NCBI GenBank assembly: GCA_013359225.1
Contig: JABWCG010000002.1
Span: forward strand, 113,470 to 177,469
Length of the DNA stretch: 64,000 bases
Source of the DNA: Candidatus Buchananbacteria bacterium
GTDB taxonomy: Bacteria > Patescibacteriota > Patescibacteriia > Buchananbacterales > UBA6539
Direction of reading: 5' to 3'
Part shown: one piece after another, positions 6,476 to 55,473 of the stretch
How positions within the stretch are numbered: position 1 is the stretch's first letter
Layout of the letters: every line of letters begins with the position of its first letter
Position numbers and translations under genes: made by a program
Notes under the pieces: model-generated
What the model saw: the letters and a program-made list of their open reading frames with translations, nothing else
The model's database searches: none
What the model was told of the DNA's origin: nothing

Positions 6476-6561
6476 CTGGTGCCCGAGGAGAGACTCGAAC
6501 TCTCATGCCTTTCGGCACACGATTTTGAGTCGTGCGTGTATACCAATTTCACCACTCGGGC
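6476..6561 (-). tRNA. tRNA-Leu (anticodon CAA), long variable arm
   Basis: The reverse complement reads GCCCGAGTGGTGAAATTGGTA...ACGA-CT-CAA-AA-TCGT...(long variable arm)...GAGTTCGAGTCTCTCCTCGGGCACCA. Confidence 0.8.
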
Positions 6562-6636
6562 GTAATTACAACAAAGTCAATTATAATGCACTATTTTAAA
6601 ATTGTCAAAGGAGGTTTTTTCTACTATAATATAGTC

Positions 6637-7410: not shown

Positions 7411-7412
7411 CT

Positions 7413-9802: not shown

Positions 9803-9857
9803 GGCATTTTTTAGTATAATAATTGTAAAGGAATTAGATATAAAAATCAATTTTTCT

Positions 9858-10859: not shown

Positions 10860-10874
10860 ATTGTTACTATTTTA

Positions 10875-24452: not shown

Positions 24453-25178
24453 ATGCTCAAAATCGGACATCGGGGTGCGAAAGCCTACGCTCCGGAAAAC
24501 ACTATTGCTTCTTTTAAGAAAGCGCTTGACCTTGGCGTTGACATGGTTGAATTTGACGTTCGGATTACTAAAGACAAACATCCGGTGGTTATTCACGATA
24601 ACCGGTTGCGCCGCCTGACGAAGGAATTTATGCGCGTTAATCATCTGACTTTATCTCAGATTAAGAAGTTGCGCGTCAAAGAAACAGAGCAGGTACCGAC
24701 GCTTGGTGAGGTGCTCAGTGTCATTGACAATAAGGTTGGCATTTTAATTGATTTGAAGGTTAAGGGTGCGGCCCAAATTGTAGTGCAGACTCTGCGGGAT
24801 TATAAAATTGATTTTGATAATGTCATGATTTCGTCGGTGCATCCGTCTGAACTGCGCTTAGTTGAACAATTAGAGCCCGATATTACCACAGCACTTATCT
24901 TTCGGTCAAACAACGCATCAAACTTTTGGTTGGTAATGGATTTTTTGGCCGTCTTGTTCTTGCCGGTTACTAAATATTACATTTCTTGGTTGGTTCGTAA
25001 TGCAAACGCCAACTACTTGAACATCAATCATCGTTTGCTGAATGAAAAAAAGGTCAAAATGTTTAAAAAACAAGGAATAAAAATTTGCGCCTGGACCGTC
25101 AACAGCAAGCGCAAAATTGAATATCTTAAAAAAATAGGAATTGACGGCATTATAACTAATTATCCAGATCGCCTATGA
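24453..25178 (+). CDS. Glycerophosphodiester phosphodiesterase
   Basis: The GDPD motif is 'IGHRGAKAYAPENTIASFKKALDLGVDMVEFDVRITKDKHPVVIHD'. I took the start at MLKIGHRG to avoid the tRNA overlap. Confidence 0.8.
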   Translation: MLKIGHRGAKAYAPENTIASFKKALDLGVDMVEFDVRITKDKHPVVIHDNRLRRLTKEFMRVNHLTLSQIKKLRVKETEQVPTLGEVLSVIDNKVGILIDLKVKGAAQIVVQTLRDYKIDFDNVMISSVHPSELRLVEQLEPDITTALIFRSNNASNFWLVMDFLAVLFLPVTKYYISWLVRNANANYLNINHRLLNEKKVKMFKKQGIKICAWTVNSKRKIEYLKKIGIDGIITNYPDRL

Positions 25179-25789
25179 AAATTTTTAAAAAAAATCATTA
25201 TCCGGCCTATTTGGAGGATGATTTATCCGTCGGCAAACAAGCTGCAATTTTTGTTTGGGAAATTTTTAAAGTGGTTGTCATTTCGTTGGCGATCATTATT
25301 CCGGTTCGTTACTACCTGATTAAGCCGTTTTATGTCAAAGGGGCATCAATGGAGCCGACATTCTATGATCATGAATATCTGATTATTAATGAACTAAGCT
25401 ACCATCTTGGTAGCCCGGTCCGCGGCGATGCAGTCGTTTTTAAATATCCGATGGACCCGACTCAGTATTTTATCAAACGAGTTATCGGTTTGCCGGGAGA
25501 AACGGTTAAAATTGCCGACGGTGAAGTTACCATTATCAATAGTGCTAATCCGCAGGGGGTGACGCTGGATGAGCGGTATCTTGACAGTACTGCAAAAACA
25601 ATCGGCGATATTGAAGTAACGCTCGGGCCCGATGAATATTATTTGCTTGGCGATAATCGTTTGGCTAGTCTGGACTCTCGGGTTTTTGGGCCGGTTAAAG
25701 AAGATTTTATTGTCGGTAAAACGCTTTTCCGTGGTTGGCCAATCAGTCGAGCGGGCCTTATAACCAATAATTTAGAATATAATTTATAA
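25175..25789 (+). CDS. lepB: Signal peptidase I
   Basis: It has the S26 boxes 'GASMEPTF' and 'GDNRLASLDSRVFG' and an N-terminal TM anchor. Confidence 0.85.
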   Translation: MKIFKKNHYPAYLEDDLSVGKQAAIFVWEIFKVVVISLAIIIPVRYYLIKPFYVKGASMEPTFYDHEYLIINELSYHLGSPVRGDAVVFKYPMDPTQYFIKRVIGLPGETVKIADGEVTIINSANPQGVTLDERYLDSTAKTIGDIEVTLGPDEYYLLGDNRLASLDSRVFGPVKEDFIVGKTLFRGWPISRAGLITNNLEYNL

Positions 25790-28051: not shown

Positions 28052-30928
28052 ATGAATAGTAAAAGACTGTTTAATAACTTCCTAAAGATTTTTGAAACTA
28101 AAGCTACCATGGTGGTTTGCGCCGTGGTAGTTTTTGTTTTTGTTTTTGCGCCGGCGGCGTTTGCCTTAGAAACCGGTCTGCAGTATGGTACAGCATCCGG
28201 GCTTGGTACCCAGGATTTGCGGGTAAGTATTATGAAGATTATCCGGATTATTTTGGGATTTGTCGGGATTATTGCCATTTTGATTACGCTTTATGCCGGG
28301 TTTATTTGGATGACGTCCGGCGGCAATGCCGATAAGATTGATACCGCCAAGCGGACTCTACGCAATGCCGTCATTGGTTTGGTGATTATTTTTTCTGCGT
28401 TTGCCATTGTCAGCTTTATTATCGGAGCGCTTGAAGGCGCGCTGACTCAGCCGGGTTTGCCGGGCGGCCAGCCGCCGGATACCGGCTGTGTTAACTGCGG
28501 CCACTTGGGCGGCGGCATCATTGAAAGCGTTTATCCGACACCATTCCAGCGCGATGTTCCTCGTAATACCAATATTCAAGTTACTTTTAAAGTGCCGATG
28601 CAGCCAAATACCATTATTGACGGCGCTCCAGCCAGCTGTTCAGTGAGCAGCCCCTGCCAGGGTGAATTAGTTGCTGATAACGTTAAGATTTTTAAAGCGG
28701 ATGAGGATGAAGACGATGATAAGCTGGCTGCAGACGAAGTGGTGGTTACTAGCACCGACGGTAAAACGTTTATTATGGATGTTATTGATTATTTAGGTGA
28801 CTCGGCTAATAAAACGTGGTATTCGGTCAAATTGGATAATGATATCTTGAAAGATAATGGCCAGCTGGCTTTTCCGGGAGTTGACGATTTCTTCTTGTGG
28901 CAGTTTGAAGTTGGCACTTTCTTGGACCTTGATCCGGTTGAAGTGTTAAACGTTTTTCCGGCCCCTGATGACGCCAGTGACGACTATGATCAAACCAGTC
29001 CGCAGGCCGCCTTTGCGACATTGACAGTGCTTTCAAATCCGATTGCGGAAGTGGTGGCTGACGTTGATACGCCGGTCGTTACTGCCGGTACCACCGCTGC
29101 CTCGGTTAGTGGCACCTATAATGGATCATTTAACGGCAATGTGCGGGTAACGATTAATCCCGGTTCAAACACTGCTGAAGTTTTTTGGGAAACCGGTAGT
29201 GCAGACAACAACTCGGCGGCAGCAATTAATAATAATACGATTGGTTTAGGCAGTGGTTTACTGTTAACTTTGAGCGACGGGTATGCTGCCGGCAATCAGT
29301 GGACAATCACTGTTACGGCTGCGCGGCCGGCTGATACGTTACGAATCGGTTCCCGGCTTTATACATTTGTATCCGGCACCGCGGCGACCAATCAAATCCA
29401 AATTGGTAATACCTTGACCGTTACTGCCGGCAACATTGTCTCGGCGCTGGCGGACAATCTTGATGTTGAGGCCTCAAATACCGGTCCGTCTATTACCGTC
29501 ACCGCCAAGTTGGCCGGTAGTCAGGGCAACAGTATTGTGGTCCAGACCCGCGGCACCTGGTCTGATATCTGTAGTGGCAGTCCGCTGGTGTGTAATGCGA
29601 ACCAGAATAATTTGGCGCGTGGTGCAAATCAGGTTTTAACTCCGACGACTAACGATGCTCCTGACCAACCAAAAAATAGTATTATCAGTATTGATTTTAA
29701 TGAACCAATTGATGTTTCAAAAGTTAGTAATGCAACGATGATTGTCCAATACGAGGCTACACCCGGCAATTGGCAGACGGTTAATGGAGTGTATTTGTTT
29801 AGCAACCAGTATAAGACTGTTGAATTTTTGTCGGAGAATGCCTGTACCGACGTTTTTGGCAATCCAGTGATTAATTCCTGCGGCGAAGGCATCTTTTGTC
29901 TACCAACCGTTTCGCCCGATCCCGATCCGTACCAGGCAACTCATTATCGGGTAATTGTTAAGGCCGGGCTATTAAAAGAATGTGCTAGTAATTCCGACTG
30001 TTCAGACCCCAACTTCAACACGTGTGTTGCAACCGGTTCGGGTCAGGCCTGTCAGGGAACCTTTGATGCAGTTGAAGCGTTTTACCCAGAAACGCGGGAT
30101 CTTAACGCCAATGGCATTACGGATGCCGCCAACAATTCATTCAACGGTAATAAAGATGAGTACGTCTTAAACGGCCGGTCGTATGGCAAGGCTGACGGTC
30201 CGGCTGAACAAAGCGGCCAGGCCGAGTATAACCTTAACGATGGTGTTACCGCTAATCTTGGTGACGATTTAGTTTGGTATTTCTATATTAATAAGACACT
30301 TAATTTGGTTCCGCCAAAAGTGTCAACAATGGGGCCAACCATCAACCAGAGCGCCATTAGTCTGACCGAAGCGCCAAATGTGACTTTTGATAAATTGGTT
30401 AGCAGCAGCAGCTTGAAGCCGGGCAATAACTACCGTGATGGTTTTTGCTACTGTCAAAACGATTCAGAATGCAATCAAACCGCTGGAGAAACGTGTGATA
30501 CGATGCGCAACAAATGTGTTAATGCCAATGATGATGCCCAGACTTTCTGTGAACAGGATAATGAGTGTGAAACTAATCGTTGTGACAATAAGAAGTACGT
30601 TACTTTAATTGATCGTGCCACACCGAAAGTTGGTTGGTGGACTACGAAAGAAGATTTGGATACCGGTACGCCGCGCGATGGTTATGGTGACCAGACTAGG
30701 GGTTCGATCCGACACACTATCTTTAATGAAATCACGAATTACGGTGCGGAATTTGGTTCGGGGGTTAAAGATATCTATCAGAACTGTTACTTCCCGGGCG
30801 GTGGACCGGATGTTGGTCCGCTACCAAACTCTGATTGTCCGGTAACAGTTAACTTGCCGTACTGTTGTAATGGTGTGGCCTATAGTCAGGCTGATTGGGA
30901 AAACACGTCGTGTTTTACTGGGTATTAG
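28052..30928 (+). CDS. Large (958 aa) surface protein. The N-terminus is a TrbC/VirB2-like two-helix pilin module; the body holds beta-rich, Ig-like extracellular domains and a Cys-rich C-terminal region.
   Basis: After the signal peptide comes 'GTQDLRVSIMKIIRIILGFVGIIAILITLYAGFIWMTSGGNADKIDTAKRTLRNAVIGLVIIFSAFAIVSFIIGAL'. That is two hydrophobic helices separated by a short polar loop, with the I-W-M-T-G motif as in VirB2/TrbC pilins. The N-terminal ~130 residues are paralogous to those of the giant ORF downstream. Confidence 0.55.
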   Translation: MNSKRLFNNFLKIFETKATMVVCAVVVFVFVFAPAAFALETGLQYGTASGLGTQDLRVSIMKIIRIILGFVGIIAILITLYAGFIWMTSGGNADKIDTAKRTLRNAVIGLVIIFSAFAIVSFIIGALEGALTQPGLPGGQPPDTGCVNCGHLGGGIIESVYPTPFQRDVPRNTNIQVTFKVPMQPNTIIDGAPASCSVSSPCQGELVADNVKIFKADEDEDDDKLAADEVVVTSTDGKTFIMDVIDYLGDSANKTWYSVKLDNDILKDNGQLAFPGVDDFFLWQFEVGTFLDLDPVEVLNVFPAPDDASDDYDQTSPQAAFATLTVLSNPIAEVVADVDTPVVTAGTTAASVSGTYNGSFNGNVRVTINPGSNTAEVFWETGSADNNSAAAINNNTIGLGSGLLLTLSDGYAAGNQWTITVTAARPADTLRIGSRLYTFVSGTAATNQIQIGNTLTVTAGNIVSALADNLDVEASNTGPSITVTAKLAGSQGNSIVVQTRGTWSDICSGSPLVCNANQNNLARGANQVLTPTTNDAPDQPKNSIISIDFNEPIDVSKVSNATMIVQYEATPGNWQTVNGVYLFSNQYKTVEFLSENACTDVFGNPVINSCGEGIFCLPTVSPDPDPYQATHYRVIVKAGLLKECASNSDCSDPNFNTCVATGSGQACQGTFDAVEAFYPETRDLNANGITDAANNSFNGNKDEYVLNGRSYGKADGPAEQSGQAEYNLNDGVTANLGDDLVWYFYINKTLNLVPPKVSTMGPTINQSAISLTEAPNVTFDKLVSSSSLKPGNNYRDGFCYCQNDSECNQTAGETCDTMRNKCVNANDDAQTFCEQDNECETNRCDNKKYVTLIDRATPKVGWWTTKEDLDTGTPRDGYGDQTRGSIRHTIFNEITNYGAEFGSGVKDIYQNCYFPGGGPDVGPLPNSDCPVTVNLPYCCNGVAYSQADWENTSCFTGY

Positions 30929-30954
30929 AACTAATTTGATTTTACGTTAAGGGA

Positions 30955-33900
30955 ATGATCCCGAAAAAATCAAAAATAAAAAAATTAATCTTACCAATCG
31001 TATTTGGTTTGGTTCTTGGCAGCTTTTTAGTTGGTAGTTCAGTTTTGGCGTTAGAAACCGGTCTTGGATACGGCACATTCTCCGGTTTGGGCACCCAGGA
31101 TCTGCGGGTATCGGTCATGAATGTCGTTCGAGCGATACTTGGATTTTTGGGAGTGTTAGCCATCGTGATTATTTTCTACGGCGGCTTTATTTGGATGACC
31201 GCTGGTGGTAATGCGGACCGGATTGCAACGGCTAAAAAGATTTTAACCAACGCTGTAATTGGGTTAGTCATTATCTTTACTTCGTTTGCCATCACTAGTT
31301 TTGTCATTAATCAGCTGATTAATGCGACTGGTGCTGGCGGTGGTGGTATTACTCCGGGTAGTTGTGATGAACCTTCGGATGTTGGTGCAGTGAATGGCTG
31401 TTATGTTTGTACCGATTTTGGCAGTAACTACGGTTGGCAGGTTGATTGCAGCATTAACGGTTGTTGTCCGGGTCCTGCGCAATGCGGCGTGGTAAGCATT
31501 ACACCATCGTCGCCACCAAATCAGCCGATGAACGCGGTGGTGCGAGTTCGGTTTAATCTGCCCACAATTACCGGGGTTGATGAAATCCAGGTTATTGATA
31601 CGACGACCGGAAATCCGGTGGCCGTTAACCGAACGGTTGTTGGCAACGTGGTTGAGATTAGACCCACCGCTTTTTGCGCCGCGCCACAAGATGCTTTGAA
31701 TTGTTTTCCGGCAAACACCACCTTTAACATTGCCATGAATTCCGGATCAATTCAGTGCGGCGGTCAGAACTTGGTGTGTGGTGGTTTTCCGGACCCCTGT
31801 CAGGGCAGTTTTACCACAGGGGATTTTGTAGACATCGCCGGTCCGACGGTTGAGCTGGTTGATCGCCAGATTTGTCAGGGCACAACTAACGAATTGCGGG
31901 CGTTGGTCAATGACGATTATGGTATTGATAACGTTCAATTTTTTGATACAACATACGGTGTTTTGATTAGTACTGATACTAATGTCAGCGTACCACCGGA
32001 AGGTTTTGCTACTGGTAATTGGGACACTTCAACATACGCAATCAATGAGTTTGTGACCGTGGAGGCGCGAGCGTCTGATTATGATAGTCATGTTGCGACT
32101 GATCAGTTGCAATTTACCATTCGCGCCGGTCATTGCTGTAACGCGGTGCAAGATGGCGATGAAACCGGCTTGAATTGTGGTGGTAATGATTGTGAAGCGT
32201 GTAATCCGGTTATTGAGTGGGTGTCGCCGTTAAACGGCGAACAGGGTAACTTGATAACGGTTCATGGCCGTCATTTTGGCGATATCCCCGGAACAGTGAC
32301 TTTTTTGGGCGCACCAAATGACGGTGGTGCCGATAATCAGGATGGACTCAATCCGGCTTCAATTAACCCTCAGTGCAGTAACTATTGGACCGATACGGAA
32401 ATTGTCACTGTTGTTCCTGATGCTCAGGACGGACCAATTATGGTCCGGGCGAACAATGGTACGGTTGACACCACTAATGAGTTGCCGGGCAATACGATTG
32501 CCGATTTTGATCGTAACGATGTTGAGCGCCCCGGTATTTGTACGGTTGTGCCATCCAGTGGCGAGCCCGGTGATGCGGTTGTGATTCATGGTCTGCGCCT
32601 TGATGCTGGCAGTGAAGTATATTTCAGTTCGGTGTTAGCCGGCGGTACCCCGGTTGCTGATGGTTTAATGGTAACTGGCGCCACGGTGCCGAATCTGGAT
32701 CCGGCTCAGGTTGGTCTGCGGGTTAAAAATCAAACCCAGTTTAGTAACCCTAAAACTTTTTCGGTTGGCGACGCCAACGCTCCCGGCCAATTTCAGTGCA
32801 GCAGCGATCAGTTGACGTGTAGTCCGGATCAGTCAAAATGTACGCCGGACAAATTCTGTAATAGTTCTTGTAACTGCGAACCGCGTCAGACCTGTGATAC
32901 TAACACCGGCACACCCAGTTGTGAACCGAGTCAGGGTTTGTGTGATCCTGGGTGGTTTTGTTATAACCCGTTGCCCGATGGAACCCATCAGCCAGATCCA
33001 AACAAGCTTGCTTGTCACTGCTATCAAGCCCAGTTTTGTGACGATCCGACCTTAGCCGCTGATGTTCAAAATCCGGCCTGTCACCCTAATGATGGAGCAT
33101 GTCCGGATAATTATACCTGTGACCCTAATAGTAATTGTACTTGCCAGCCTGTCAGTTCGATTGGTGACGATTCAGCTTACGGCTGGTTTTTCCAGTCGGG
33201 GATTAAGCCGGGATCGTGTAGCAATGAAGCGGGTATTTGTGATCCAAATAGCGCGTTATGTAATAACGGCGAGACATGCAATCCAACGACTTGTAATTGT
33301 GAACCAACCACTCAATTTGCTTGTAGTAGTGACCCTAACGTTTGTAGCCCCGATCCTGATTTGTGTGAAACGGGAACTTTTTGTAATCAAACTTGTCAGT
33401 GTGAAACTCTGGTTCCTTGTGATGCCGATCCAAACAGTCCCAGTTGCGAACCCAGTGCCTGTCCACAGAGTTATTTCTGTTACAGCGCTTCGGTCGGTGA
33501 CCCGGGGTATGATGCGAAAAAATTAGATTGTTATTGTTATCCGGGCATTTTGTGCGACGGAGATATTAGCACGCCGGTTTGTGATCCGGATAACGATTTT
33601 TGTCCAACCGATTATGAATGTAATCCAAACAGCTGTTTTTGTGAGGCTCAGGTAAAGGTTTCAGACAGTTCGACGTATACATGGTTTTTCAATACGACAT
33701 CGTTTGGTCCGCGGGTAGTTGAGAGTTGTAACCGATCAAACACTTGTGACATTGACAGCTATTCCAGTCCGTCACCATATAATGTTTCCGGCACCAGAGC
33801 GGGTGGTTATACGGTGAGTGGTGCTCGACCTGACGACGGTGCGATTCCGGTTGATTCGATTATTACGGCAATGTTTACTACCGAGATGGTTGAAAATTCC

Positions 33901-36900
33901 ATCAACGAAACATCGGTAATCGTCTTGCGATGTAATGAGGCGAGTCAGCCGTTTAATCCGACTAGTTGTGGTGCCCAGCAAATTATTGACGATAACGGCA
34001 TAGACGTTCATGGCTGTGATTATCTTGGTGAGGCGGTAACGTGTTTTGATTTTGAACCTTCGGCCTTGCTAACTAAGAATTATTGGTACCAGGTCACGTT
34101 AAATACGAGTCAAATTTTTGGCACCAATGGTGTCAATTTAATTGGTAACAGTATTGATAATAATTACCGCTGGGTCTTTAAGACGCGTGACAGTGATGAA
34201 CTTAGCCGCGTTGCCTGTGTTTATGTTGAACCGACATATCAAACAGCATACAACTTAGGAGCTGAACATGACTGGAATGCCTATGTGTCACCGGAAGATT
34301 TTGTGTGTGTTTTGATGAATCCGGATCGATCATGCACTTGGGATTGGACAACTTCCGACGGTCGGGCCACGGTGATTGACCAAAACGGCAATGAAGCAAC
34401 AACACAAGCCTTGGCAGAAACACTGCCTGATCCGCCGGTTGACGTGATCGCGAGCTGTACCTTTAGTGACGGCCAGAAAGATGGTGAAGGTAAGCTGACA
34501 ATTGATTTAACCTCGCCATATGTTATTGATAAGTTTCCTGATTGTGGTACGGCGTGTTTGAATGCCAGAATTGGTGCGACGTTCAGTCGGGCGATGGATG
34601 CGGTGAGTGTGACTGACGCAATGACTTTGTATATCTGCTATAACAATCCAAATTGTGAGATTGGTCCCGCCAATGAAGTTACGAGCTTTAGTAAGCCAAC
34701 TGCTCCAGCGCCGGATGAAGCACCAAACACTTTTGTTGGTGACATGCCGTGCTTTGACGTTAATGATGATGGAAAATATGATTATTGTTTGCTGCCCGAT
34801 ACGTATTACCGCGTAGTTATCAACAATACGGCAGTCAGCGCCAATGACAATAAGCCGTTGGCAGGGTTGAATTTTGACGATCCGACGCTTGGTGGTACCG
34901 GCGACCTTGATTCGTATTCTTGGATTTTCAAGACCCAGGCTGATGCCGGTCTTTGTCTGCCGGATCGTATTGATGTTTTCCCACAAGACGAAGTAACACC
35001 GGTTGATACTACTATTAATTATGCCTCGCGTCCCCGCACTGCCGGCGATGCCTGCGATCCGGAATTCGGCCAGCGGTTAAATCCGTATATTTGGAGCTGG
35101 GATTATGATACTAATTTAGTCTCTCGCCAGTTTGATAATCCGTTTTGTAGTGGTTACGAAGTAGCAAACCTTTTGAGTACCGCGCCGCAAAATTATTGTA
35201 CTGAGCGCTTGCCGGGTAGCTTGCGCCAGTCATGCGGCAATAATGTAATTGAAATTGGCGAATCGTGTGACGATGGTAATCTGGTTAATGGTGATGGCTG
35301 TTCGAATTCTTGTTTGCATGAAGGGACAGTGACGCCGACCTGCGGCGATGGCAAAATTGGCGCCGGTGAGGAGTGTGAAACTCCCGGATCAAATTATTGT
35401 GGTGCGGACTGTTTGTGGGTTGGTAATACTGATTATGATTTGGAAGTGTGTGGCAATGGCATTGTTGAGCTTTCTGAAATGTGTGAATATCCAAACACTC
35501 CTGGGTGTGGGGCAACCTGCTTGTTGAGCGGTACTACTGGGGCAGCGATTTGTGGCAACGGCGTAATTGATCGGGGAGAAGAGTGTGATGAAGCCGAGCG
35601 GTTGAATGGTGATGCTCCGTCAAGCGGTGATTATAACGGCGACGGTATCAGTTGTGGCCCGACTTGTTTGATTGAAAATCGTGGTATTGGCGTCTGTCGC
35701 TCAGTTGCCACTAACAAGTTTGATTTTACACAAAACGGTGGCAGCTGTAACACTGGATATGTAGCGGTGCCACTTAATACTGCTACTGGCAACAGTAATG
35801 TTGGTTCGGTTTGCGGCAACCGGATTACCGAGCTTGGTGAACAGTGTGATCTTGGCGGCCGGTGTAGTGATAATAATAAACCTTGTACAGTTAGTAATCT
35901 TTCTAATTGCGCGAATTCGGCGACAGCGACCTGCGAGCCGCGTGATACGTATTGTTTTGACCCAGGCAACGCGACCGATGGTCAAACTTGTCCGACGCCT
36001 GGTTCGGCGTGCGGCACTAGCGGTGTGTGTATTGCCAATACTTGTACTGTTGAGTGTTTAAATGCCGGTTATCCGAGCGGATTTTATTCTGACAATATCA
36101 GTCCATATCAGATTGCTGCAGCCACCAAAGACGGTGAAACATATATCCAGTCATGGATTGGTGGCTATTCGCCGGTGGATACTGGGCCGATGGGCGAGGG
36201 GCATTTGTTGGTTGGTAATGGCGGCGGTAATCAGTTTGTGATCGTTGAACGCTGGCCTGATTGCGGTAGTGCATGTTTGAACGCCGACATTGGCGGACGC
36301 TTCAGTAAGTCGGCAGATCCGAATACGGTTAATGATTTGCAGGCAATTGATTTAGGTGCTGACCGAATTTTCCTCTACGAATGTGGCTTAGACTATAGTT
36401 GTGCAATTGATAGCCTTGAACCGATTGAGGTGAGTGTTGATTCCTATATTGAAGAATATGTTAATGATGCTTTTCGTATCAACCTGCCGCTTTTCTATAA
36501 TTTGATTGATCATGACAACAATCCGTCCACGCCAATGGTGAACGCCTTGTTGCCGAATACTAATTATCGTGTCGTGGTTCGTAATACGGTAACCAGCGCC
36601 GAAGGCTTGGCTTTGACTGGCTTAAATTTTGACGATCCTTATTACGATTACCAAAATCCCGACACTGGCAGCCGTCTTGATTCTCATTCTTGGGTCTTTA
36701 GAACACAAGACACCAGCGAGATTTGCAGTCTGGACAGCGTAAATGTTAATCCGGATGATTATTACTCGGAATCAGATGCCAGTGTGAGGTATAGCTCGGA
36801 GCCACGCAGTGAGCCTGACGTATGTGATCCGCGTTACGGCCAGCGGTTAAATCCGTTTTACTACGATTGGAATTGGGATGATGAAGAGGTGACTGGAAAT

Positions 36901-39900
36901 CCGACACCGCCACCGACCTTCTTGAACTCGGCTGAGTTTGCGTTGCCATTACGCGACGGTTGCGGCAATGCGTTGCTGCAATTTGGCGAGGATTGTGATG
37001 ATGGTAATTTAGATAATGGCGACGGTTGCTCGAGCGTTTGTCTGAACGAAGGAACGACCGCGCCGACTTGTGGTAATAACAAAATTGATCGGGGAGAAGA
37101 GTGTGAGCCGCCAAGTACCGGATATTGTGGTGCCAACTGTTTGCTGATTGGTAATGATAATTATACGCCGATTGCTTTGGGCGGTTATCGACTTGATGAT
37201 GTATGTGGTAATGGCGTGGTTGAGCCAGGTGAGGAGTGTGACGAGGGAACAGAGCCAAACGGCAATGAGGCAGACGGTTGTACGGATTACTGCCGGTATA
37301 CCGGTTCAGTGCCGGCAGCGCTGTCGATTTGTGGCGACGGCCAGATTGGCCTTGGCGAAGAATGTGATGACGCCGATTTTTCAAACGGTTCTCCGGTTGC
37401 TTCCGGCGATGGTTGTAGTGGCACTGATCCAATCGCTGCTTGTACTGGACTGGATCGAACAGCTTGTACGGCATTTCCGGCAGCTAACACCTGTTATTGG
37501 ACTGGTAGTACCTGTAAAACCAGGCCGTGTTTAGTGGAAAATAGAAACGTTGCGATTTGCCGTTCTGACCGTGCGGGCGAGTTTGATTTTAATCAGAGTC
37601 CGGCCGCATGTGAAGATGGTTATGATCCGTATAACCTAACTTCGGTGAGTGGTAATAATAATTTTGAAACTCCAATTTGTGGTAACCGGGTGATTGAAGA
37701 AGGTGAAGAGTGTGATTTGGGTGGCCGGTGTAGCGATAATGGTCGCCGCTGTATTCCAACCGATCTTTCTAATTGTGCAAATCCTAAAACAGCCGTCTGT
37801 GAATTGGCGCTTGGGATTTGTACTTCAGACGGTACAACCTGTACAGTCATTGGCTCAGCTTGCGGTAGTGGCGGAACCTGTTTTTCTACCGGGTGTAGCG
37901 CGGAGTGTTTAAATGCCGGTGCGATTGAAGATTCCTTATTACAAGACACTTTGATTGACCCGTACCAGGTGGTTAACACCCTTTCCGTGCCGACTGTTTT
38001 GGCTGAGGTAAATGAAGAAATTAAAGCGTTTGCGACGATTCAGCCAAATGCCGTTGGCGTTGGGTTGCTGCATGTGGTACCCGGTTCACAGGTTGATTTT
38101 GCGGTTATTGGTCATCAGCCGGCAATTGGTGCCACTAACCAATGTTTGAACGTTGGTATTTGGGCCTTGTTCTCACGGCCATTGAATACGGAAACGCTTA
38201 GCGCCGACAGCATCAGATTGTGTCAGGGAGGCGATTGTAGCTTGGTGAAAAATTATTCATACCGCATTGTTCAGGGTGAATGTGGCGATGACAGTTTCTG
38301 TCATTTCCCAGAACACCTGTCAGATGTTGATAGCTTTGGCGTTTGTCATAACGATTTTGATTGTGTTGGCGGCCAGCTGATCGTTCGAAGCCTTAATACT
38401 GACACGGGCTTTCTTGACCCAAACCAGGATTACGAAGTAAGAGTTGATCAAAACAATTTGCAAGATATTAACGGCATGACGCTAGCCGAAGCAAATACCT
38501 GTAACGGCCAGACTTCGTGTGAGTGGGGCTTTAGTTCCGGCACTGATTTTTGTGAATGTGAATATGTCAGCGTTTCCATCAACCCGACAACTGGTGGCTC
38601 GGAAACCGTTAAAGATTTGTTTACTTGTGCCGGTGATGACTGCGGTTCTGGGACCGTCTCGCCGTTTGACGACGACGCCGCAAACGGCAATCCGGCTACT
38701 GAGCAAAATTTGGCCGGTAACCAGCATTTATATGATACCGTCTGTTATGACATTCATAATAACGAGGGTGGCCGAATTCCGCTTTTGCCGACTGGGTTAC
38801 GGTTTGAGTGGGCGGTATTCCCGAATGACGATTTAATTTATCTCACCGATTCAGACGCAACGGACTTTATTAACGATGCTTCGTTTGTCACGCCGAACAA
38901 TAAGAATGGTGATTCTGATGTCTTTATTACCGCTTATGAATACCATTGCGGTGACGGGCCAAATTTCTGTGATCCACAAAGCGCCGGCGCTTGTGGCGAC
39001 TGTGGCGGCGATAAGGCAGTTAACCAGACGGTCCGGGTTACCAACTTCATGTGTAATAACCCTTGGCCCGGTGTAGAAGTGTTTGAAGATTCTGATACTA
39101 ATTGTGATGACGCTAATAATTGTTATGACACTAATTTCACCATGCTGTATTGTCGTGACCAGGGGCAAGAGGGAGTCCATGACGATTTGCCGCCCCTGTA
39201 TGAAGATCCGTTGGTATTGGGAAATAATCCGGCGTCGCCCGCGATTAAAGATTTTATTTTCACCTTTGCTTCAACCGGTGTTAACCGAACTGTTAATGAC
39301 CGGACGCCAAGCAATAAAACCTGGACCGGCGGGGTGGGCAGTAATTATCAGTTTACCGTTGCTCAAACCGGGAATTACGCCGTAAAAATTGACGGCTACA
39401 ACTATCCGACCCCGGGCTGGGGAAACAGTGCCGACTTGTCGAGTCGCGTTCAGCCAAATCCGGCATTGTTTGATTCAAATGTAAATTATAATGGTTTTAA
39501 TATTGATGTGTATTTGCGGACCGGCACCTGTTCGGCGTCGCCGGCTCAAAAATCCGGTACTGCTGTGTTACTGCCGTATGATGAAACTAACCCCCAAACC
39601 GGTTCGGTGTCGCTAGGCCAGTTAACGGCGGGTGAAACCTACTGCATGGAATTTCGCTGGACTAATGATTGGTGTAAATGTAATCCAGAGTGTCTGGCCT
39701 CTGGCGGTACGCTTGATGATCAGTGTGACGCCAATTTCCATTTCTTGGGTTGGCAGGTTATTTCGGAGAACACTTCCAACGATGCAATTGGTATTCGAGT
39801 TTTGGAAAATCCGCTCCACTTGTCGCCAACAACGTGGTACAGTTCCGGTTTGTGCGGCGGGGTGGCCGAATTTGACAGCCTGTGTTTCAGCGATGCTGAT

Positions 39901-42900
39901 TGTTTGGTGCCAAATGACAACGGGTTGATTGCGTATTATCCGCTTGATGGGGTGGAGGCTGATTACTCCGGAAATGAGTTGGATGGTTTGAAAAACACAA
40001 ACGCTCCGTACCTGCCAGGCAAGTTTGGTCAGGCGGCGAATTTCTCAAGTGCTGATGAGTGGATTGAGGTTGCCAGTAACAGCAAGTTGCAGGTCTCTGG
40101 AGAGTTAACGGTAAGCGCCTGGGTTAATCTTAATGAAGGACTAAGCGGCGCCAACCCTGATGAACGAGGTCTTGGCATTATTGCTTCCGAATATGATTGG
40201 AATAGCGGCGGTGGCACTGAAACCGGCTGGACTTTAGGAGATGACTGGGGATGCAGCAATGCCGCCGGCAGTCCTTGTCCACCCGCCGATCAAATTTACT
40301 TTTCGGTTTTTGGTTCGGGCGGCTCGGTAGTTCGTGCCTATGCTAATAATTTTGCTCAAAACTATCTAGACCAGTGGGTATTAGTAACTGGTGTGTTTAA
40401 GCCTGGGCAGTATGTAAAACTCTATATTAATGGTGAAGAAAAATCGAGTACGGCGACAAATATTTCGTCTATTGTTTATAGCGCTGATACACCGCTACGA
40501 ATTGGTCACCGAGCTGATAATGATTATCAGGGTAACTGGATTGGCCGAATTGATGATGTCAAAATTTACAATCGGGCGCTAAGCGCTTCGGAAATTGCCG
40601 GACTGATGAAGCCAAATGTTTTGGAGTGCGTTTTCAATGTGCCGGCCAGAGGTAACCCGCAGCAAACTATTACTGATAATTATCAGTCGGTCGCTGAAGG
40701 CCGTAGCGTGTATGTTGGTGCCACTAATCGTCGGGCCAATGCGTTATGGTCGGATATTTACTTGATGTCCTATAGCCAGGGTGCGTCAAATAATACCATT
40801 GAAATTTTCAATCGGTTGCTTGATCCGGAACAGCTGACTGGCCGTTGGAGCTTTAATGCAAACGTTTCAAACCATCGGGTTTGTGATATTTATGGCTACT
40901 TTGAAGACACGACTAACATCTGTAGTGGTATTGGCACGTCCAATTTTGATTATTGTTCAACACTAGGAACCCCCGCCGCCTGTAATAATGACGCCGTTAC
41001 GTATGGCTGTTATTGGGATAGCCAGTTTGAAGTTTGTCTGGGTAAGATGTGTGAAGCAATTTATTGTGAAAATGATTTTGAATGTCCGAACTTAAGTTGT
41101 AATGCCAATAAGGAAAAAATTGTTCGCGATGCCGAGCGGTATGGTGACTTGCGTGATTTGCAGCTGGCCTTAAATCGATACGGCCAGACTAAGGGTGGTT
41201 ATCCGACCCTGGGCGGCGGTACCTACGTTCCAAACACGACGTTCTCGCAATGGCCAAGCTGGCAGCAGACGCTTGGAGCGGACTTGGGCGGGCGGCTATA
41301 TGTTGATCCGATTAATCGTTTTGTCGGTTGTTCAGATCATTATTGCGATGATAATGAAAGCGGTACTATTGACTCGGGTGAACGAACATTCTGTTTGGTT
41401 GGTGATGTTGATGCTTGCAGCAGCCGGCCGTACCTTTGTCTGGCGATTGATCCAGATCAGGAAGTAACTTGCTGGGATGAAATTACCAAGCAGTTCAGCT
41501 GCCCGGCTCAAATGTTCTCGTATGCCTATAACGCCATTAACGGCGGTGGTGACTACGCGCTTTATACTTCTTTTGAATATGATCAAATTGGCAGCTGGCG
41601 CAGTTTGCCGGGGTATTTCTGTGATACCAATAATAACGGTTCAATTCAAATCGATCAGGAAACAATCCGCTGTACGGTGAATGCCGACTGTACCAGCGGT
41701 GCCTGTTTGGCTTCAGCGGAAGCGGATTTATATGAATTGCCATTAACATCAACTGATGTTGAGTGTCGTGAATTAAACTTTACTTTGGATGCGGCAACAA
41801 TTAGCGGGGGAGTGAGTCCGGCTGAGTGCGCTGCCCGACGCTGTTATGGCGGTACTAATGATCCGGAAAACGATGAGTGTAATAGCGGAGAGGTAACTGA
41901 ATGTCCGGATTCCGGTCCTGGTACGTATTGTACGGGCGACGCTGATTATGATGGCATTTGTGATGTGGATGTCGGAACCGATAACTGTAATCCGTTCCTG
42001 GATTGTAAAGCTAACCCTCGTGATTGTTATAATCCTGATCAGCGCGATAGCGGAGGTATCCCCGGAAAAGGAGACGTTTGCGACGCGACGTGCGGTGCCG
42101 ACACCGACTCTGATGGTGTTTGCGACAGTTCGGATACTTGCCGCAACGTGTATAATCCGGCCAATGCCAGCTGTCTGGATGGCCATAGCAATCGAACCAA
42201 TGGTCAGTGTGATTATGACCTGGACAACATCGGCGACGCGTGTGACCCGTGTACTGATTTAGACCGTGATGGTTTTTGGGACAAAAATACTCCCGCCAAC
42301 ACCTGTTTGGCCGACAACTGTGCGGTAGGTCTGACCGTTTCAAATGATCGTTTTGGTTATTGCAGTGGTGATTTATCTATTCAGTGTAGTCCGGGCGCGG
42401 CCGGCAATACCATTTGTGCGGGCGCTGGAGCCGGTAGTTGTGTCCAACAGACTGGTAGTCTGGCTACTTATAATCCGTACCAGGAAGATTATGACGGAGA
42501 CGGCGTGGGATATATTTGTGATTTTTGTATTGATTTTGACGGCGATAGTCATGGTGATTATCCGTTTTATACCAGTTCAATGTTCGTGACAACCTTAACT
42601 CCTAACCAGCAGCAACATTTTAGTAGTTGTACTTCCGGCACGGCTTGGCCGGGCAACCCGGGAAATATTAATGACATTGACAACTGTCCGGGCGGACCGT
42701 TTGGTGCTGAATGTACAGATGAGTTCGGCATTGAAGTTTCTTGTTATAACCCCAGCGGCACGGCTTGGGAAGACCTGAATGGCACAAGCCACACCGGACA
42801 AAAAGATTTTAACCTAGATGGTATTGGTGACATTTGTGATGAATTTCGTGTTGGACTGGTTAATTGTGGCGACGGTATTACCGACCCGGGAGGCGGGGAA

Positions 42901-45900
42901 GCGTGTGACTGTGGTAAGTATGCCCTAACTTCCGATCCCTCAAGCCCGATTGTCTGCAGTACGATTAACGACCAACCCTGCAATCCCGGATATGATTCCA
43001 ATGTTGGCAATGGTTTGAATAATTGTAATTGGTGTTACCGCTGTCAGGAAGTAAAGAATGAAGAGGCGGGATATTGTGGTGATGATATCGTTCAGGCGCC
43101 TCAGGAAAACTGTGAACGTGGCAACGCTGGTTGTGATAATTCCTGCCAAAATTTTGAGCCGGCGGAATATTGTGACGCCAATGGGTATGATTCGGAAGTT
43201 ATTCATTTTAATTCGCCCACCGGCCAAACTTCTCATAATTTCTTAAATACCACTCCGGTTTACTTTTATATTCCGGAATGTAGTATCACTAACAGCACAG
43301 AGGTTAGTTTTGATATTGATATTACCGGCTCATTGCCGGATACGGGTATTGTTTTTGTAACAGATGTTTCCGGCAGTATGGCCGGCACCCGAATTACTGA
43401 CGCCAAGGCAGCAATAATTAATACTATTAATGATTTTGCTGCTACCGCCTTTGCCGGTAAAATTCATATTGGTTTGGTGAGCTATTCCACTGATAAAAGC
43501 CTTGATTCACCATTGGTGAAGGTTGATAACCCCACTAATGTCCAAAACTTGATCGCTAAAGTCAACGCATATGATGCCGTTGGCGGTACTGAACCGGATA
43601 AAGCAGTTCAGGAAGCAACTACAATGTTAGGCAGTTTTACCGGTAATCGTATTATGATTTTTATGACGGACGGTGATTCTCATTATACTTATGGTAATTA
43701 TGGTCCAGGTGAACCAGTCTGTTATGGCAGCCTTGATCACGGTAGTAACTGTCACGTAGTGCCAGTCTGTGAACATACGTGTGCGTATACTTGTAATGGC
43801 TCTGCTTGCCAGGAGTGCACAGCGACAAATATTTGGGGAGCCTGTACTACTTGGACAAATCGTTCGGGAACCTGCTGTCCTGATTGTCCCGGTAGTGTAG
43901 CGTATGAATTTACCTGTTCAGCCGCAAGTGTTTGTACTGGCTGTATTGCGAGCTCATCTAGTTTTACAAATGATTCTGATATTGCCAAGGGCGCACCTTA
44001 TAATATTGTTATTTATGGCGCGGCTTTTACGGGAGGCACTCAGACCGCTAACCCCACAGAAGTGAATTTAACTTCTTCTAACTGTCTTGGTGGTTCATGC
44101 AGTTCGAATTTCTGTAATAGTGGGTATTGTTTTGGTGAAGGTGGTTTAACTTTTGAAGATATTTATGGTGCAATTTATGATCAGATTGTTGAGGAGTTGG
44201 GGTATAGTTTTTCCGTTCTGGTTGATGGTGTTATGACAACTCCGATTGATTTGCCATATCAATCGCCCACGGGCGGTAGCTATCCGAATCAAACTATTGA
44301 TTTACCAAGTAACATTTGTACCAGCGGCACGGTTAATCCGTCTTATCCTGATTTTGGCCAACACACCTTGCAATTGGTTGGGCTGCCAAGCGGCATTCAA
44401 GCCAGTTTTAGCGGCGCGGCGGTGAATTATTGTACGACGTGTGATGAAGATAATGACGGCGTGATGGACGCGTCTTGCGGCGGCGCTGACTGTAATCCGG
44501 CGAACGCTAATATTCCGGTTGCGGAGTTAATTGCCGCCGGTAACTGTACTGACAATATTGATAATGACTGTGATGGCACTAAAGACGGAGCGGATATCGG
44601 GTGTGTTGATCCCGGAGGTGGGGGAACAATCCAAGAAGGAATTGGCAACTGTGCTGACGGCATTGATAATGATGTTGATTCCCGAACTGACTGCGCTGAT
44701 CCTGAATGTGTCGGAAAGCCCGGCCCTAACGGTGTGACTTGTTGCCAGGTGGGAACTGATTGTTCAACTTACGGCACGGGGCAATGTAACGCCTGTTCTA
44801 ACAATGTTTGTGTTGCGGTAACGGCCATTAATGGCAGTAATTGCGAAGGTACTTGCAGTTTTTGTAGCAATGGTACTTGTGTTAATCGCGAAACAGGTGA
44901 CGGTCGCGAATGTCCGGCCGGTTGGGCCTGTACTGGTCCGGCGGCAACAGCATACTGCTCGCCAAATGTTTCAGCTGAAAATTGCAGCCAAGCCGGCGAT
45001 GAAGACGGTGATGGTTTGGCCGATTGTGCGGACGTTGACGATTGTGACGGCCATACTGCGCCGGATGGCGGCATTTGTTGTACTGATAGTTTTGACTGTG
45101 GTGGTACGTGTCAGACTTGTTCGCCCACTGCTAAGCGGTGTGTACCTTATACCGGATTAAACGGTGGTCTGTGTTCTGGCGCCTGTACATATTGTAGTAA
45201 CGGCAGCTGCGTTGCCCGAACTAATGGCGACGGGCTTGAATGTCCGGTTGGTACTGTTTGTTCTGGTATGAGTTGTGTTGATCCGGGCGCTTCCAATGAT
45301 TGTACGGTGCCATCCTCAAAAGTTTGCCCATTCCAGCAGGGTGTTTGTAGTGGTTCGCGGGAAAATTGTGTGGCGCCGGGTGTCTGGCCGGGCTGTGATT
45401 ATCAAACATATGTAAACCATGCCGCCTCAACCGGCAAAACATATGAGGCTGGATTTGAATCACTTTGTACGGACGGTCAGGATAATGATTGTGACGGGCA
45501 GACTGACAGTGCCGATTCTGATTGTGGCGCGGTTTGTAACGATAATGGCACTTGCGACGGAGCGGAGAACTGTTCTAACTGTCCGGATGAATGTGCTTGT
45601 CTGCCGGGACAGTTGTGCTGTGGCGCGGCGACGTATAGCTGCGAAGTTCCGGATTGTAATGCTAATATTGATTGTAACGACAGCAACGCATCAACAATTG
45701 ATGTCTGCCAGGGTGCGGCGACTTGTAATGCAACTTGTATTCATACGCCGATTACGGCTTGTAGTAATGGGGACGGGTACTGTCCGGCCGGTTGTACGGC
45801 GTCTAATGATACTGACTGTGCTCCGGTCGCCGCATGTCAGGATACGGATGGCGGCAGCACGGTGTATACCACCCAGGGAACGGTTAGTGACGGCGTTGGC

Positions 45901-48243: not shown

Positions 48244-48948
48244 ATGTTTGATGATAAACCAAACAAGCCAAATCCAATGGCGCCTACCAATTTGCCGACT
48301 GCTCCCCAAAAATTAAGCCGGGAGCCGGAAGACATCTTAGATACTATTGATGAGGCTCCGGCCGCCGCGGCTCCAGTTTCCCGGCCTCAGCCGACTATTC
48401 CGGCGATGCCAGTGCCACCAGCAATGCCAAAGGCGGAAAGGGCAACTACCAAAGAGCCGTTTGCTTTTCATTATAAAAAGTTTGTTGTAGTTATTCTCGG
48501 CATATTATTGTTGGCGGGCTTGGCGTGGGGTGGCTGGTATGCGTATACGACGTTTTTAAGGCCTGATAAAACTGCAACCAATACCAATCAGCCGACGACC
48601 ACTAATCAGAATAACGCTAATACCAATCAGCCGAATGGTAATGCCGGCGCTGCAAACGTCAATCAACCCGGCAATGTTAATGTCGGTGGCGAAGGAACAC
48701 CGGTAGATCCAAAGCCAGTTGACTCCGACAGCGATGGTCTTGATGATGAAGAGGAAAAACTATATGGGACCAATCCGGACCGAGTTGATACGGATCTTGA
48801 CGGTTTAACTGATCGTGATGAGGTAAAAGTTTTTAAAACTGACCCGAATAATCCAGATAGCGATGGGGACACCTTCTTGGACGGTAATGAAGTTCGCGCC
48901 GGCTACGACCCGAAAGGGGACGGCAAACTCTTGGAAATAAATAATTAA
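48244..48948 (+). CDS. Single-pass membrane protein with an Asn/Thr-rich low-complexity linker and thrombospondin type-3-like Ca-binding repeats
   Basis: It has the TM helix FVVVILGILLLAGLAWGGWYAY, an NQPTTTNQNNANTNQPNGN linker, and the repeats 'DSDSDGLDDEEEKLYGTNPDRVDTDLDGLTDRDE...DPNNPDSDGDTFLDGNE'. Confidence 0.5.
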   Translation: MFDDKPNKPNPMAPTNLPTAPQKLSREPEDILDTIDEAPAAAAPVSRPQPTIPAMPVPPAMPKAERATTKEPFAFHYKKFVVVILGILLLAGLAWGGWYAYTTFLRPDKTATNTNQPTTTNQNNANTNQPNGNAGAANVNQPGNVNVGGEGTPVDPKPVDSDSDGLDDEEEKLYGTNPDRVDTDLDGLTDRDEVKVFKTDPNNPDSDGDTFLDGNEVRAGYDPKGDGKLLEINN

Positions 48949-48979: not shown

Positions 48980-49966
48980 ATGTTTAAGTTAGGGAAAAAT
49001 AAAGTCAGTGAATCAAAAACAGATACGGCGTTAACGTCCGGCGGGTCTGAAAGTGTTCATGTGATGCCGAGAAAATTTTATGTTGCACCTAAAAAGGGCA
49101 ATAACGGTCTAGTTATTATTATCGTTGTGGGAGTGCTGGTGGTTGGCGGCCTGGCGGCGGCGGCGATTTTTCTTAACTTAAGCCTTGGCAAAAATCAGGC
49201 CAGCAATCAAAATAGTAATACAAACACTTCAGCGTCGGTTACTACAAATACGGGCAATACTAACGTGAATATTAATAGCAACGTGAACGCTAATATTGGT
49301 ATGCCTGCAACGACTACGATTGATGTGCCGACGACAACCGATCCGGCAGTTAATATTAATGTGAATACCAATACATCAATTGATGATCCGGATATCAAAG
49401 ATGTAGAAGTAAAGCCCTTACCTTCAGCGCCTGATTCTGACAACGATGGTCTAACGCTTGAGGAAGAAAATTTATACGGCACCGACCCGTCGTTACTAGA
49501 TTCTGACAATGATGGCTTTTCCGACGGCTCGGAGCTTTTGAACGGGTATGACCCGACGCATGTCGGCCAGACGCTTGAGGCCTCAGGAGTTTTTACCAAG
49601 CACACTGGCGCTGGGTATTCAATTAGTTACCCGACCGGCTGGCAAGTGAGGCCGCAAAGTGACAATAGCGAAACATTGTTTATTTCAAGTACGGGCGAAT
49701 TTGTCGCTGTTATCATCATGGAAAATCCGGACAAGCTTCCTTTGGCAGAGTGGTATGCTAAGCAGTACCCGGATATTGATATTACCAATGCTGTTTCGGT
49801 CCGCTTAAATAGTTTTTCTGGATACCGCCATCCTGATAATCGGATTTATTTCCTGACCAAATCCGGCGACATTAGCAAGATTTTTATGGTTAATTATAAT
49901 GTTGGCAATTTCCGGCTGACTAATTTTGCCACCACGTTCAATTTGATGGTTAAGAGCCTTAATTAA
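48980..49966 (+). CDS. Paralogous single-pass membrane protein with an Asn-rich linker, TSP3-like repeats and a C-terminal globular domain
   Basis: It has the TM helix LVIIIVVGVLVVGGLAAAAIFL, an NQNSNTNTSASVTTNTGNTNVNINSN linker, and the repeats 'DSDNDGLTLEEENLYGTDPSLLDSDNDGFSDGSE'. Confidence 0.5.
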   Translation: MFKLGKNKVSESKTDTALTSGGSESVHVMPRKFYVAPKKGNNGLVIIIVVGVLVVGGLAAAAIFLNLSLGKNQASNQNSNTNTSASVTTNTGNTNVNINSNVNANIGMPATTTIDVPTTTDPAVNINVNTNTSIDDPDIKDVEVKPLPSAPDSDNDGLTLEEENLYGTDPSLLDSDNDGFSDGSELLNGYDPTHVGQTLEASGVFTKHTGAGYSISYPTGWQVRPQSDNSETLFISSTGEFVAVIIMENPDKLPLAEWYAKQYPDIDITNAVSVRLNSFSGYRHPDNRIYFLTKSGDISKIFMVNYNVGNFRLTNFATTFNLMVKSLN

Positions 49967-55465: not shown

Positions 55466-55473
55466 AACTAAAC

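Follow-up and report, generated by a model that had tools for sequence, protein, structure and literature searches.

A conserved gene pair in Patescibacteria joins a predicted VirB2-like pilin module to medium-sized and giant adhesin-type proteins

We analysed a 64-kb window, the whole stretch of 64,000 nucleotides (nt) read from the chromosome of an ultrasmall Candidatus Buchananbacteria bacterium (contig JABWCG010000002.1), and focused on two neighbouring open reading frames (ORFs) on its plus strand, ORF A ("M"; 28052–30928, 958 amino acids (aa)) and the giant ORF B ("G"; 30955–48225, 5756 aa). Both proteins are predicted to begin with a Sec-type signal peptide and a VirB2/TrbC-type pilin module, followed by a large adhesin-type body, here called the cargo. 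On balance, we favour the reading that the two are modular VirB2-type pilins, encoded by a conserved and probably co-transcribed pair of genes, which would probably co-assemble with short pilins to present giant adhesins.

ORF A and ORF B are separated by 26 nt and are probably co-transcribed, because no terminator-like site was found between them and a 98-nt AT-rich gap precedes ORF A. BLASTP aligned residues 21–127 of ORF A with residues 15–121 of ORF B without gaps at 63% identity (67/107; E = 3e-38), and every other segment gave E ≥ 0.003. Within this block, an 82-aa module core (ALETGL...FAI) was 73% identical. Rather than running from the start codons, the similarity extends from the predicted signal-peptidase site through the second hydrophobic helix; identity was 16% between the signal peptides and 28% over the 60 aa past helix 2. 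A six-frame scan with a hidden Markov model (HMM) of the module detected only these two copies in the window. At the nucleotide level, 168 of 246 positions in the codon alignment of the core were identical (68%), third positions agreed in 40% of the 107 codons aligned by BLASTP, and exact runs reached 14 nt at most. Among the 60 identical residues other than Met and Trp, the same codon was used at 25, compared with 25.5 expected from the codon usage of both genes (z = −0.13), and no direct repeat linking the two modules was returned by a repeat finder (seed 12, minimum 30 nt). The synonymous sites of the two modules are thus saturated, and the nucleotide similarity is a shadow of protein conservation, since synonymous codon identity is at chance. 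The original prediction, made from the sequence alone, had described near-identical modules at both protein and DNA level, direct repeats of ~400 bp, and bodies that diverge completely. Paralogy at the protein level was borne out by the alignment, with the modules strongly similar only; the DNA-level repeat was not, and the similar stretch covers ~270–320 nt (28112–28432 in ORF A; 30997–31317 in ORF B) instead of ~400 bp. The bodies do diverge, essentially as described, at the sequence level, though they are made of like parts, namely Big_5 Ig-like domains and Cys-rich segments. A 15-pair stem-loop with a T-run (28100–28134), flagged as terminator-like, was also seen within the stretch of ORF A that encodes the signal peptide; we rejected it as a feature, and it is probably coincidental, as it lies within a coding region and terminator-like hits were rarer than in shuffled sequence.

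The leaders of the two proteins are laid out alike. In ORF A, the predicted Sec-type signal peptide (aa 1–38; 28052–28165) has a basic n-region, a hydrophobic core (hydrophobic segment 21–39) and A-F-A, and is followed by the mature pilin module (aa 39–127; 28166–28432), supported by Pfam, structural modelling and hhalign, which consists in order of a polar exposed N-terminal segment LETGLQYGTASGLGTQDLR, helix 1, the loop SGGNADKIDTAKRTLR and helix 2. In ORF B, the signal peptide (aa 1–32; 30955–31050) ends in V-L-A with predicted cleavage before LETGL, and the mature module (aa 33–121; 31051–31317; Pfam, BLASTP) is paralogous to 28166–28432. [quoted passage not shown] PF04956 (TrbC) was matched by ORF A only and just under the cut-off (27.3 vs 27.9 bits), and NCBIfam NF045849 (Mbov_0395 pilin-like conjugal transfer protein, from a Mycoplasma integrative and conjugative element) scored 38.1 against a threshold of 40. 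We then used hhalign to align 39 Patescibacteria pilin modules with seven bona fide VirB2/TrbC proteins from alphaproteobacterial plasmids, where their genes lie between virB1 and virB3. The alignment reached a moderate probability of 68.6% (E = 4.6e-5) over 60 columns with 30% identity, in the register GT.D…ILG.FG…A…G..WM…loop…helix 2, which supports homology to experimentally defined VirB2 but does not settle it. As in VirB2, two hydrophobic helices connected through a short basic loop (SGGNADKIDTAKRTLR) come after the signal peptide, and AlphaFold 2 (AF2) modelled the ORF A module as a helical hairpin (H56–87 / H93–132) with a predicted local distance difference test (pLDDT) score above 90. 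ORF A is identical to the public protein P0034, named by NCBI [quoted passage not shown], and all full-length homologues of the ORF A cargo carry PF18895 together with PF13205. Judged by these matches, the module is a specific pilin-type (T4SS_pilin/VirB2-like) domain and not a generic signal peptide. Two other identities were considered and rejected: that of a type IV pilin, as the first 60 residues contain no class III signal peptide and no N_methyl Pfam match was obtained, and kinship with the donor-strand-exchange "Pam" pilus of candidate phyla radiation bacteria reported in 2026, whose pilins have an Ig fold and whose description does not mention VirB2.

Hydrophobic segments were found at 21–39, 60–78 and 106–124 of ORF A and at the equivalent positions of ORF B, three per protein and all N-terminal. 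Neither protein has a C-terminal LPXTG, hydrophobic segment or transmembrane segment, and a single internal LPDTG occurs in ORF B (aa 4127), just before the von Willebrand factor A (VWA) domain. Because no other membrane segment or sorting signal is present, the pilin hairpin appears to be the sole attachment device. By the AxA rule, signal peptidase I is predicted to cleave both leaders after AxA and before LETGL; the enzyme expected to do so is the signal peptidase I (S26) encoded in the window itself (25175–25789, plus strand; Pfam Peptidase_S26, 142.9 bits; found upstream of the pair in almost all related loci), although the neighbourhood is conserved housekeeping synteny overall. From the positive-inside rule and the analogy with VirB2/TraA, the hairpin loop is predicted to be cytoplasmic and both termini, with the cargo, extracellular. 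In F/pED208 pili, the lumen is lined by the α2–α3 loop and the two pilin termini point outwards (PMC5018250); a fusion to the C-terminus would thus be displayed externally.

Gly/Pro-rich linkers follow helix 2 in both proteins and lead into the cargo. The AF2 model of ORF A (pLDDT 77.9) comprised three N-terminal helices and was all-beta thereafter, the cargo being modelled as a string of beta-sandwich domains with pLDDT ~85–94 over most of residues 150–760. Among PDB folds, its best match was SbsC, an S-layer protein of Ig-like type (E = 2e-5), with chains of the cadherin/NCAM type next, and its first Big_5 (bacterial Ig-like) domain was located after the linker (residues 157–271; 28520–28864; PF13205, 43.1 bits); Cys-rich segments accompany the Ig-like string. 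In ORF B, Pfam identified a Big_5 domain (33811–34185; 63.8 bits), a LamG / concanavalin-A-like lectin domain (40054–40599; Laminin_G_3, 71.3 bits), a VWA domain (43348–43686; VWA 40.0 bits, VWA_2 37.8 bits) with a DVSGS of the metal-ion-dependent adhesion site (MIDAS) type at aa 4137, and a MopE-type Cys-rich putative metal-binding motif, the better of two stretches lying at 46417–46509 (35.3 bits). The giant protein also contains a diverged, Cys-rich, acidic repeat array of the CGNGxxExGEECD type (35227–37715; TIGR02232 myxo_disulf_rpt, 56.5 bits; DUF4215), which corresponds to the direct-repeat family D1 with nine copies that are 63–84% identical. There are 26 Cys residues in ORF A and 406 (7.2%) in ORF B, the cargo is acidic, and no enzyme domain was found in the cargo of either protein. 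As far as the domain matches tell, the cargo is of adhesin type, with Ig-like strings in both proteins and a LamG lectin and a MIDAS-containing VWA domain in the giant.

The family was surveyed by a module-alignment scan with one genome per species, which found at least 474 relatives, and the module HMM was run on the 80 best loci. The expectation of further members carrying this leader was therefore confirmed, with a similarity that is not limited to a generic signal peptide. The ORF classes in these loci are stop-to-stop segments, giant lengths are lower bounds wherever a locus or contig ends, and locus counts are not independent events, the genomes being related. All examined loci showed Patescibacteria gene content, with Candidatus Buchananbacteria nearest. 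A medium ORF (~500–1100 aa) directly followed by a giant ORF (1140 to >3460 aa), each with the N-terminal module, was present in 52/80 loci, the giant ORFs often being cut by the 10-kb flank; two more loci, L027 and L067, have it with a first gene truncated where the contig stops. The shared synteny runs …SPase I-HisRS-S21-YqeY-[M]-[G]-TSP3a-TSP3b-YbeY-FtsA. Both cargoes are orthologous across loci, with 24–53% identity over up to ~900 aa for that of M and 24–44% over hundreds of residues for that of G. An independent protein-guided scan revealed 18 further pairs on metagenome contigs; its matches were distant relatives only (≤ 40% over long matches), and an exact 32-mer from the ORF A module had no match in the metagenome collection. 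Nor did a contig-index search for the exact ORF A protein return any entry, and neither search brought up a strain-level relative or a population variant. Where the sequence downstream of an M-type gene was long enough, the next gene was nearly always of the G type. Giant-only loci were L060, L077 and apparently L106 and L112, in which the giant gene follows YqeY directly and no M gene is present, and in the medium-only locus L034 M is followed by FtsK. The pair is old and conserved, because the same pair, synteny and orthologous cargo recur in 52/80 species loci and 18 metagenome loci, and the comparisons indicate one ancient duplication kept as a unit. An assembly artefact or a recent duplication was rejected in view of the synonymous saturation and the retention of the pair in dozens of independent assemblies.

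Beyond this locus, HMMER was run over 1.84 billion representative sequences and returned 56,124 proteins at E ≤ 1e-3 and 15,452 at E ≤ 1e-10. Among the best 150 matches, the module was N-terminal in 52 proteins of 500–1300 aa and in 32 proteins of 1300–6860 aa, 12 were short pilins and 41 carried several modules. The picture of a family combining a pilin anchor with variable cargo thus held in that a very large module-plus-cargo family exists, and failed at this locus, where the cargo is orthologous; nor does the pair reflect a family growing by duplication here, as a single ancient duplication accounts for it. The 41 multi-module proteins hold 2–17 pilin modules, e.g. 6 in 552 aa (P0064, P0066, P0072–P0074, P0161 and others), and represent either genuine poly-pilin proteins or tandem arrays fused by read-through or mis-calling (alternative genetic code?). 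Annotation labels across the family vary ("TrbC/VirB2 family protein", "Ig-like domain-containing protein", "LamG-like…", "IPT/TIG domain-containing protein"), and homologues of the G type are named variously as LamG-like or IPT/TIG proteins. Many third-party-assembled (TPA) metagenome-assembled genomes titled "uncultured Gammaproteobacteria bacterium" hold the Patescibacteria-type pair and synteny (L008, L012, L013, L017, L019, L021, L023 and others), and the Gammaproteobacteria label of such entries seems to be either wrong or a placeholder. Further observations concern single loci. In L060 (5896–7201) and L077 (5782–7186), two tandem signal peptidase I genes stand in place of one, and the giant exceeds 3,100 aa. 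In L027, a single stop splits the giant gene into two consecutive ORFs (2441–8215 / 8219–11455); the gene may be truly split or a pseudogene, or the stop may stem from a sequencing error.

Module identities were next compared within and between genomes. The M and G modules of one genome were on average 0.657 identical, compared with 0.49 (M-M), 0.51 (G-G) and 0.49 (M-G) between genomes, and none of 20,000 permutations reached the identity of own pairs (permuted maximum 0.527). The tandem partner was the nearest of 233 modules for 50 of 106 modules, and own M+G pairs made up 23/52 neighbour-joining cherries. The within-genome excess was greatest in the exposed 27-aa N-terminal segment (0.61 vs 0.37); the helices and loop showed 0.66–0.70 within and 0.52–0.57 between genomes. 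After a simple ancient duplication, orthologues should resemble each other more than paralogues do, and the reverse holds. Synonymous codon identity summed over all genomes was likewise in excess (1506 observed vs 1283 expected, z = 8.8), most strongly in L013 (z = 5.4, 37-nt identical run), L068 (4.35), L015 (4.28) and L036 (3.86, 49-nt run), and the nucleotide patterns were visibly mosaic. These results demonstrate occasional gene conversion between modules in the family. The synonymous excess is absent in other genomes, among them the window (z = −0.13) and in the nearest relative, L001 (z = −0.10), and gene conversion is not visible in the window modules. In L054, the modules are 91% identical in protein with synonymous sites near expectation (z = 1.25). 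Selection is likely to keep the two modules alike, although neither conversion nor selection-driven likeness is recent in the window. The outcome of exchange is homogenisation of the module and not swapping of cargo, plus the rare loss of one gene.

The modules were also compared with free-standing pilins of 120–190 aa, which occur in ~20/80 loci in conserved tandem arrays of 6–11 genes. In the genome of L001, the array locus L020 and a single pilin in L011 hold a short pilin whose mature N-terminus (LALN.GLEYGTYTGLGTKDLRE) is shared with the M/G modules. This short pilin is 51–66% identical to the M/G modules of its own genome (L011_S_9953, 55–66%; L020_S_9875, 51–58%), whereas the other eight array pilins are 30–40% identical to them, and an equivalent high-scoring pilin occupies a fixed array position in other species. 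On this difference in identity, the M/G modules appear to derive from, and to have stayed close to, one specific pilin, designated S*. In the Buchananbacteria loci L020 (7108–13372) and L079 (344–7894), an array of ~9–10 short pilins follows NTP-transferase and SBP_bac_1 genes, and no T4SS component was found among the large ORFs scanned in these two loci; in other classes, the pilin array lies upstream of PNPase. A metagenome locus, L141 (5797–14511), has a 125-aa free pilin gene between M and G, an order that physically links short pilins to the pair.

In the mechanism that we favour, Sec insertion would be followed by signal peptidase I cleavage at the AxA/LETGL junction, and the hairpin would rest in the cytoplasmic membrane with its loop inside and its termini outside, which would place the cargo on the cell surface. 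M and G would then join, through the module, a VirB2-like pilin assembly made mainly of S*, which would be supplied from a separate array of ~9 pilin genes, and would act as low-abundance, cargo-bearing subunits presenting giant adhesins to the host cell. The likeness of the two modules would go back to the ancient duplication and be held by selection on a shared interaction together with occasional gene conversion. A stronger form, in which M and G are true VirB2-type filament subunits that polymerise with S* and display adhesins of ~830 aa and ~5,630 aa at the tip or along a pilus of a monoderm cell, is put forward only tentatively. Several observations weigh against co-assembly. No gene for VirB4, VirB6, VirB3 or a coupling protein occurs in the 64-kb window, and no T4SS component was found within ~10 kb of the pilin arrays (19 large ORFs, 12 related loci), the large ORFs scanned there encoding PNPase, SMC, a P-type ATPase, a solute-binding protein and similar proteins. 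Foldseek with the module model returned generic helical hairpins only (E > 1), and a PDB sequence profile search with the module alignment gave one chance match (E = 1.8); the structural test of the module is uninformative, not negative. A cargo of ~830 or ~5,630 aa far exceeds any known on a VirB2-type pilin and could clash sterically with a helical pilus lattice, except at the tip or as a rare subunit. Gene conversion alone, in the absence of a shared interaction, can also yield concerted evolution.

The closest competitor is a plain membrane anchor, in which the hairpin would serve as a two-helix tether keeping adhesin or S-layer-like proteins at the cytoplasmic membrane of a monoderm cell, with no polymerisation and no tie to a T4SS or to short pilins. 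We consider this a serious contender, though it falls well short of an even chance; rated against each other, co-assembly and the plain anchor are roughly comparable, with a modest edge to co-assembly. The lack of T4SS genes in the window and near related pilin arrays, the housekeeping synteny in which the locus is embedded, the huge cargo with an S-layer protein of Ig-like domains as best structural match, and the generic nature of the hairpin fold are all consistent with a tether. However, simple anchors normally keep hydrophobicity only, whereas here the whole mature module is conserved despite saturated synonymous sites, and the 27-aa exposed polar N-terminus and the GGN..K loop are conserved between the paralogues. 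The co-variation of modules within genomes, the closeness of the module to one specific free pilin of the array, and the short pilin between M and G in L141 also speak against it. A further possibility, which we regard as unlikely, is that the module is an export or release signal, a handle by which a VirB4-type ATPase would dislocate the proteins from the membrane and pass them to the cell surface or a host cell, so that they would be secreted T4SS-dependent effectors or adhesins and not pilus subunits. The strong conservation of the module would agree with this, as would the Patescibacteria T4SS, which lacks a relaxase and a coupling protein and has been proposed to serve protein export or another role (PMC10633639, PMC12102498), but no T4SS genes lie nearby. 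Least probable of all, and barely credible for this locus, is the originally predicted recombination between the 5′ modules, with cargo deleted or swapped to give surface variation in populations: modules do recombine across the family (the synonymous excess of z = 8.8, with identical tracts in L013 (37 nt), L068 and L036 (49 nt)), and the single-gene loci (L060, L077, L106, L112; L034) could stem from deletion between direct repeats, but the window lacks a substrate, with its longest identical run of 14 nt and synonymous identity at chance, and pair and cargo are orthologous in the great majority of loci, so that exchange has homogenised modules and not shuffled cargo.

The surroundings of the pair are those of an ordinary chromosome, with ParA/ParB (6.5–8.3 kb), RelA/SpoT, topoisomerase I, DprA, Pth, Der and LytR in the window. 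GDPD, signal peptidase I, HisRS, S21 and YqeY lie upstream of the pair, and two TSP3-repeat membrane proteins, YbeY, FtsA, FtsZ, a class II ribonucleotide reductase and a release factor (RF) lie downstream. The TSP3-repeat proteins (48244–48948, a bitopic membrane protein and possible accessory gene, and 48980–49966, both on the plus strand; Pfam TSP3_bac, translation, synteny) have a Pro/Ala-rich N-terminus, one transmembrane segment, an Asn/Thr-rich linker and bacterial TSP3 Ca-binding repeats. Homologues are conserved 3′ of the giant gene in 20 related loci, and this conserved adjacency suggests that, together with ORF A and ORF B, the two may make up a unit of four genes. The ParA and ParB genes (6532–8279) are located ~20 kb upstream of the pair, which suggests a probably origin-proximal locus; cumulative GC skew climbs monotonically through the window with no switch. 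T4SS genes of Patescibacteria are often found near dnaA. Elsewhere in the window, the minus strand carries a pair of adjacent tRNA-Met (CAT) genes (5121–5288), and a listed 183-aa ORF (5213–5764) that overlaps one of them is probably spurious. A cluster at 53087–59609 comprises the class II-type ribonucleotide reductase with TSCPD, a BtuR/CobO corrinoid adenosyltransferase, a prenyltransferase/SQHop-like and DUF4430 protein, a second DUF4430 protein and a DUF6580/ECF-S-like membrane protein, and looks like a cobalamin capture and uptake module for the B12-dependent reductase.

A large fraction of bacterial diversity falls within the Patescibacteria, whose cultivated members live attached to host cells. 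T4SSs of monoderm bacteria normally lack a pilus. A pilin array is nevertheless essential in the one genetically tractable species, which makes VirB2-like pilins puzzling; essentiality was reported for Southlakia epibionticum (Wang et al. 2023, PMC10633639; reviewed in PMC12857230). Proteins with a T4SS-pilin domain are also among the highly expressed unknowns of Paceibacterales that parasitise methanogens (PMC10936435). A pilin domain as the apparent sole attachment of two giant adhesin-like proteins would tie this pilin family directly to surface adhesion. If M and G were filament subunits, they would be the first conjugative-type pilins with cargo, host capture would offer a concrete function for the enigmatic essential VirB2-like arrays, and the co-variation of the N-terminal segment within genomes would reflect the fit between subunits. 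The locus family also provides a clean natural case of concerted evolution confined to a ~270-nt module of otherwise unrelated genes, and for annotation it unites inconsistently labelled genes into one orthologous pair. VirB2-like pilins and their arrays are widespread in Patescibacteria and already known, as is the domain call on ORF A in public annotation. A full-text literature search, with most subscription journals outside its scope, found no description of the pilin-giant cargo fusion, the conserved M-G pair and its synteny, or the concerted evolution of the module.

Compared with VirB2, TrbC and TraA, the two proteins share a Sec signal peptide and a two-helix hydrophobic hairpin with a short basic loop. 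Canonical pilins, however, measure ~70–130 aa and have nothing past helix 2, whereas ORF A and ORF B add ~830 and ~5,630 residues, respectively, and are not next to VirB3, VirB4 or VirB6 within the window. A C-terminal cargo also rules out the head-to-tail cyclisation of VirB2/TrbC. The VirB2-like pilin arrays described in Patescibacteria (441 arrays of 2–11 short pilins, whose mutual identity averages 25% and peaks at 54%; Quinonero-Coronel et al. 2025, PMC12102498) belong to the same phylum and Pfam family and share the tandem arrangement and chromosomal location with the pair, which likewise consists of two adjacent PF18895-positive genes. The pair differs from them in being two cargo-fused genes with modules 63–73% identical at a different, housekeeping-flanked locus, and fused giant proteins are unmentioned in that study (PMC12102498). 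Sortase- or C-terminally anchored Gram-positive adhesins carry a C-terminal LPXTG or transmembrane segment, unlike ORF A and ORF B. The giant surface adhesins of small-celled or predatory bacteria (e.g. Omnitrophota) are similar in being Cys-rich and acidic with Ig-like, lectin and VWA domains, and the present organism is presumed to be host-dependent as well; the two proteins would instead attach by a VirB2-type hairpin and not by a C-terminal anchor, a type I secretion signal, a lipobox or multiple transmembrane segments. The nearest counterpart in design is found among modular type IV pilins, such as PilB (vWA module) and PilC (concanavalin-A-like lectin) of Streptococcus sanguinis, which are polymerised via their pilin module and located at the pilus tip (Raynaud et al. 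2021, PMC8179133). Both designs place an adhesion module behind a small N-terminal pilin module and a short flexible linker, and ORF B even shares the module types, VWA with MIDAS and a ConA/LamG lectin. The pilin superfamilies are unrelated, type IV pilins having one long α1 helix and a class III signal peptide that a prepilin peptidase removes, neither of which occurs in ORF A or ORF B, so the likeness is a design analogy only, in which the cargo of ORF A and ORF B is one to two orders of magnitude larger than that of PilB and PilC.

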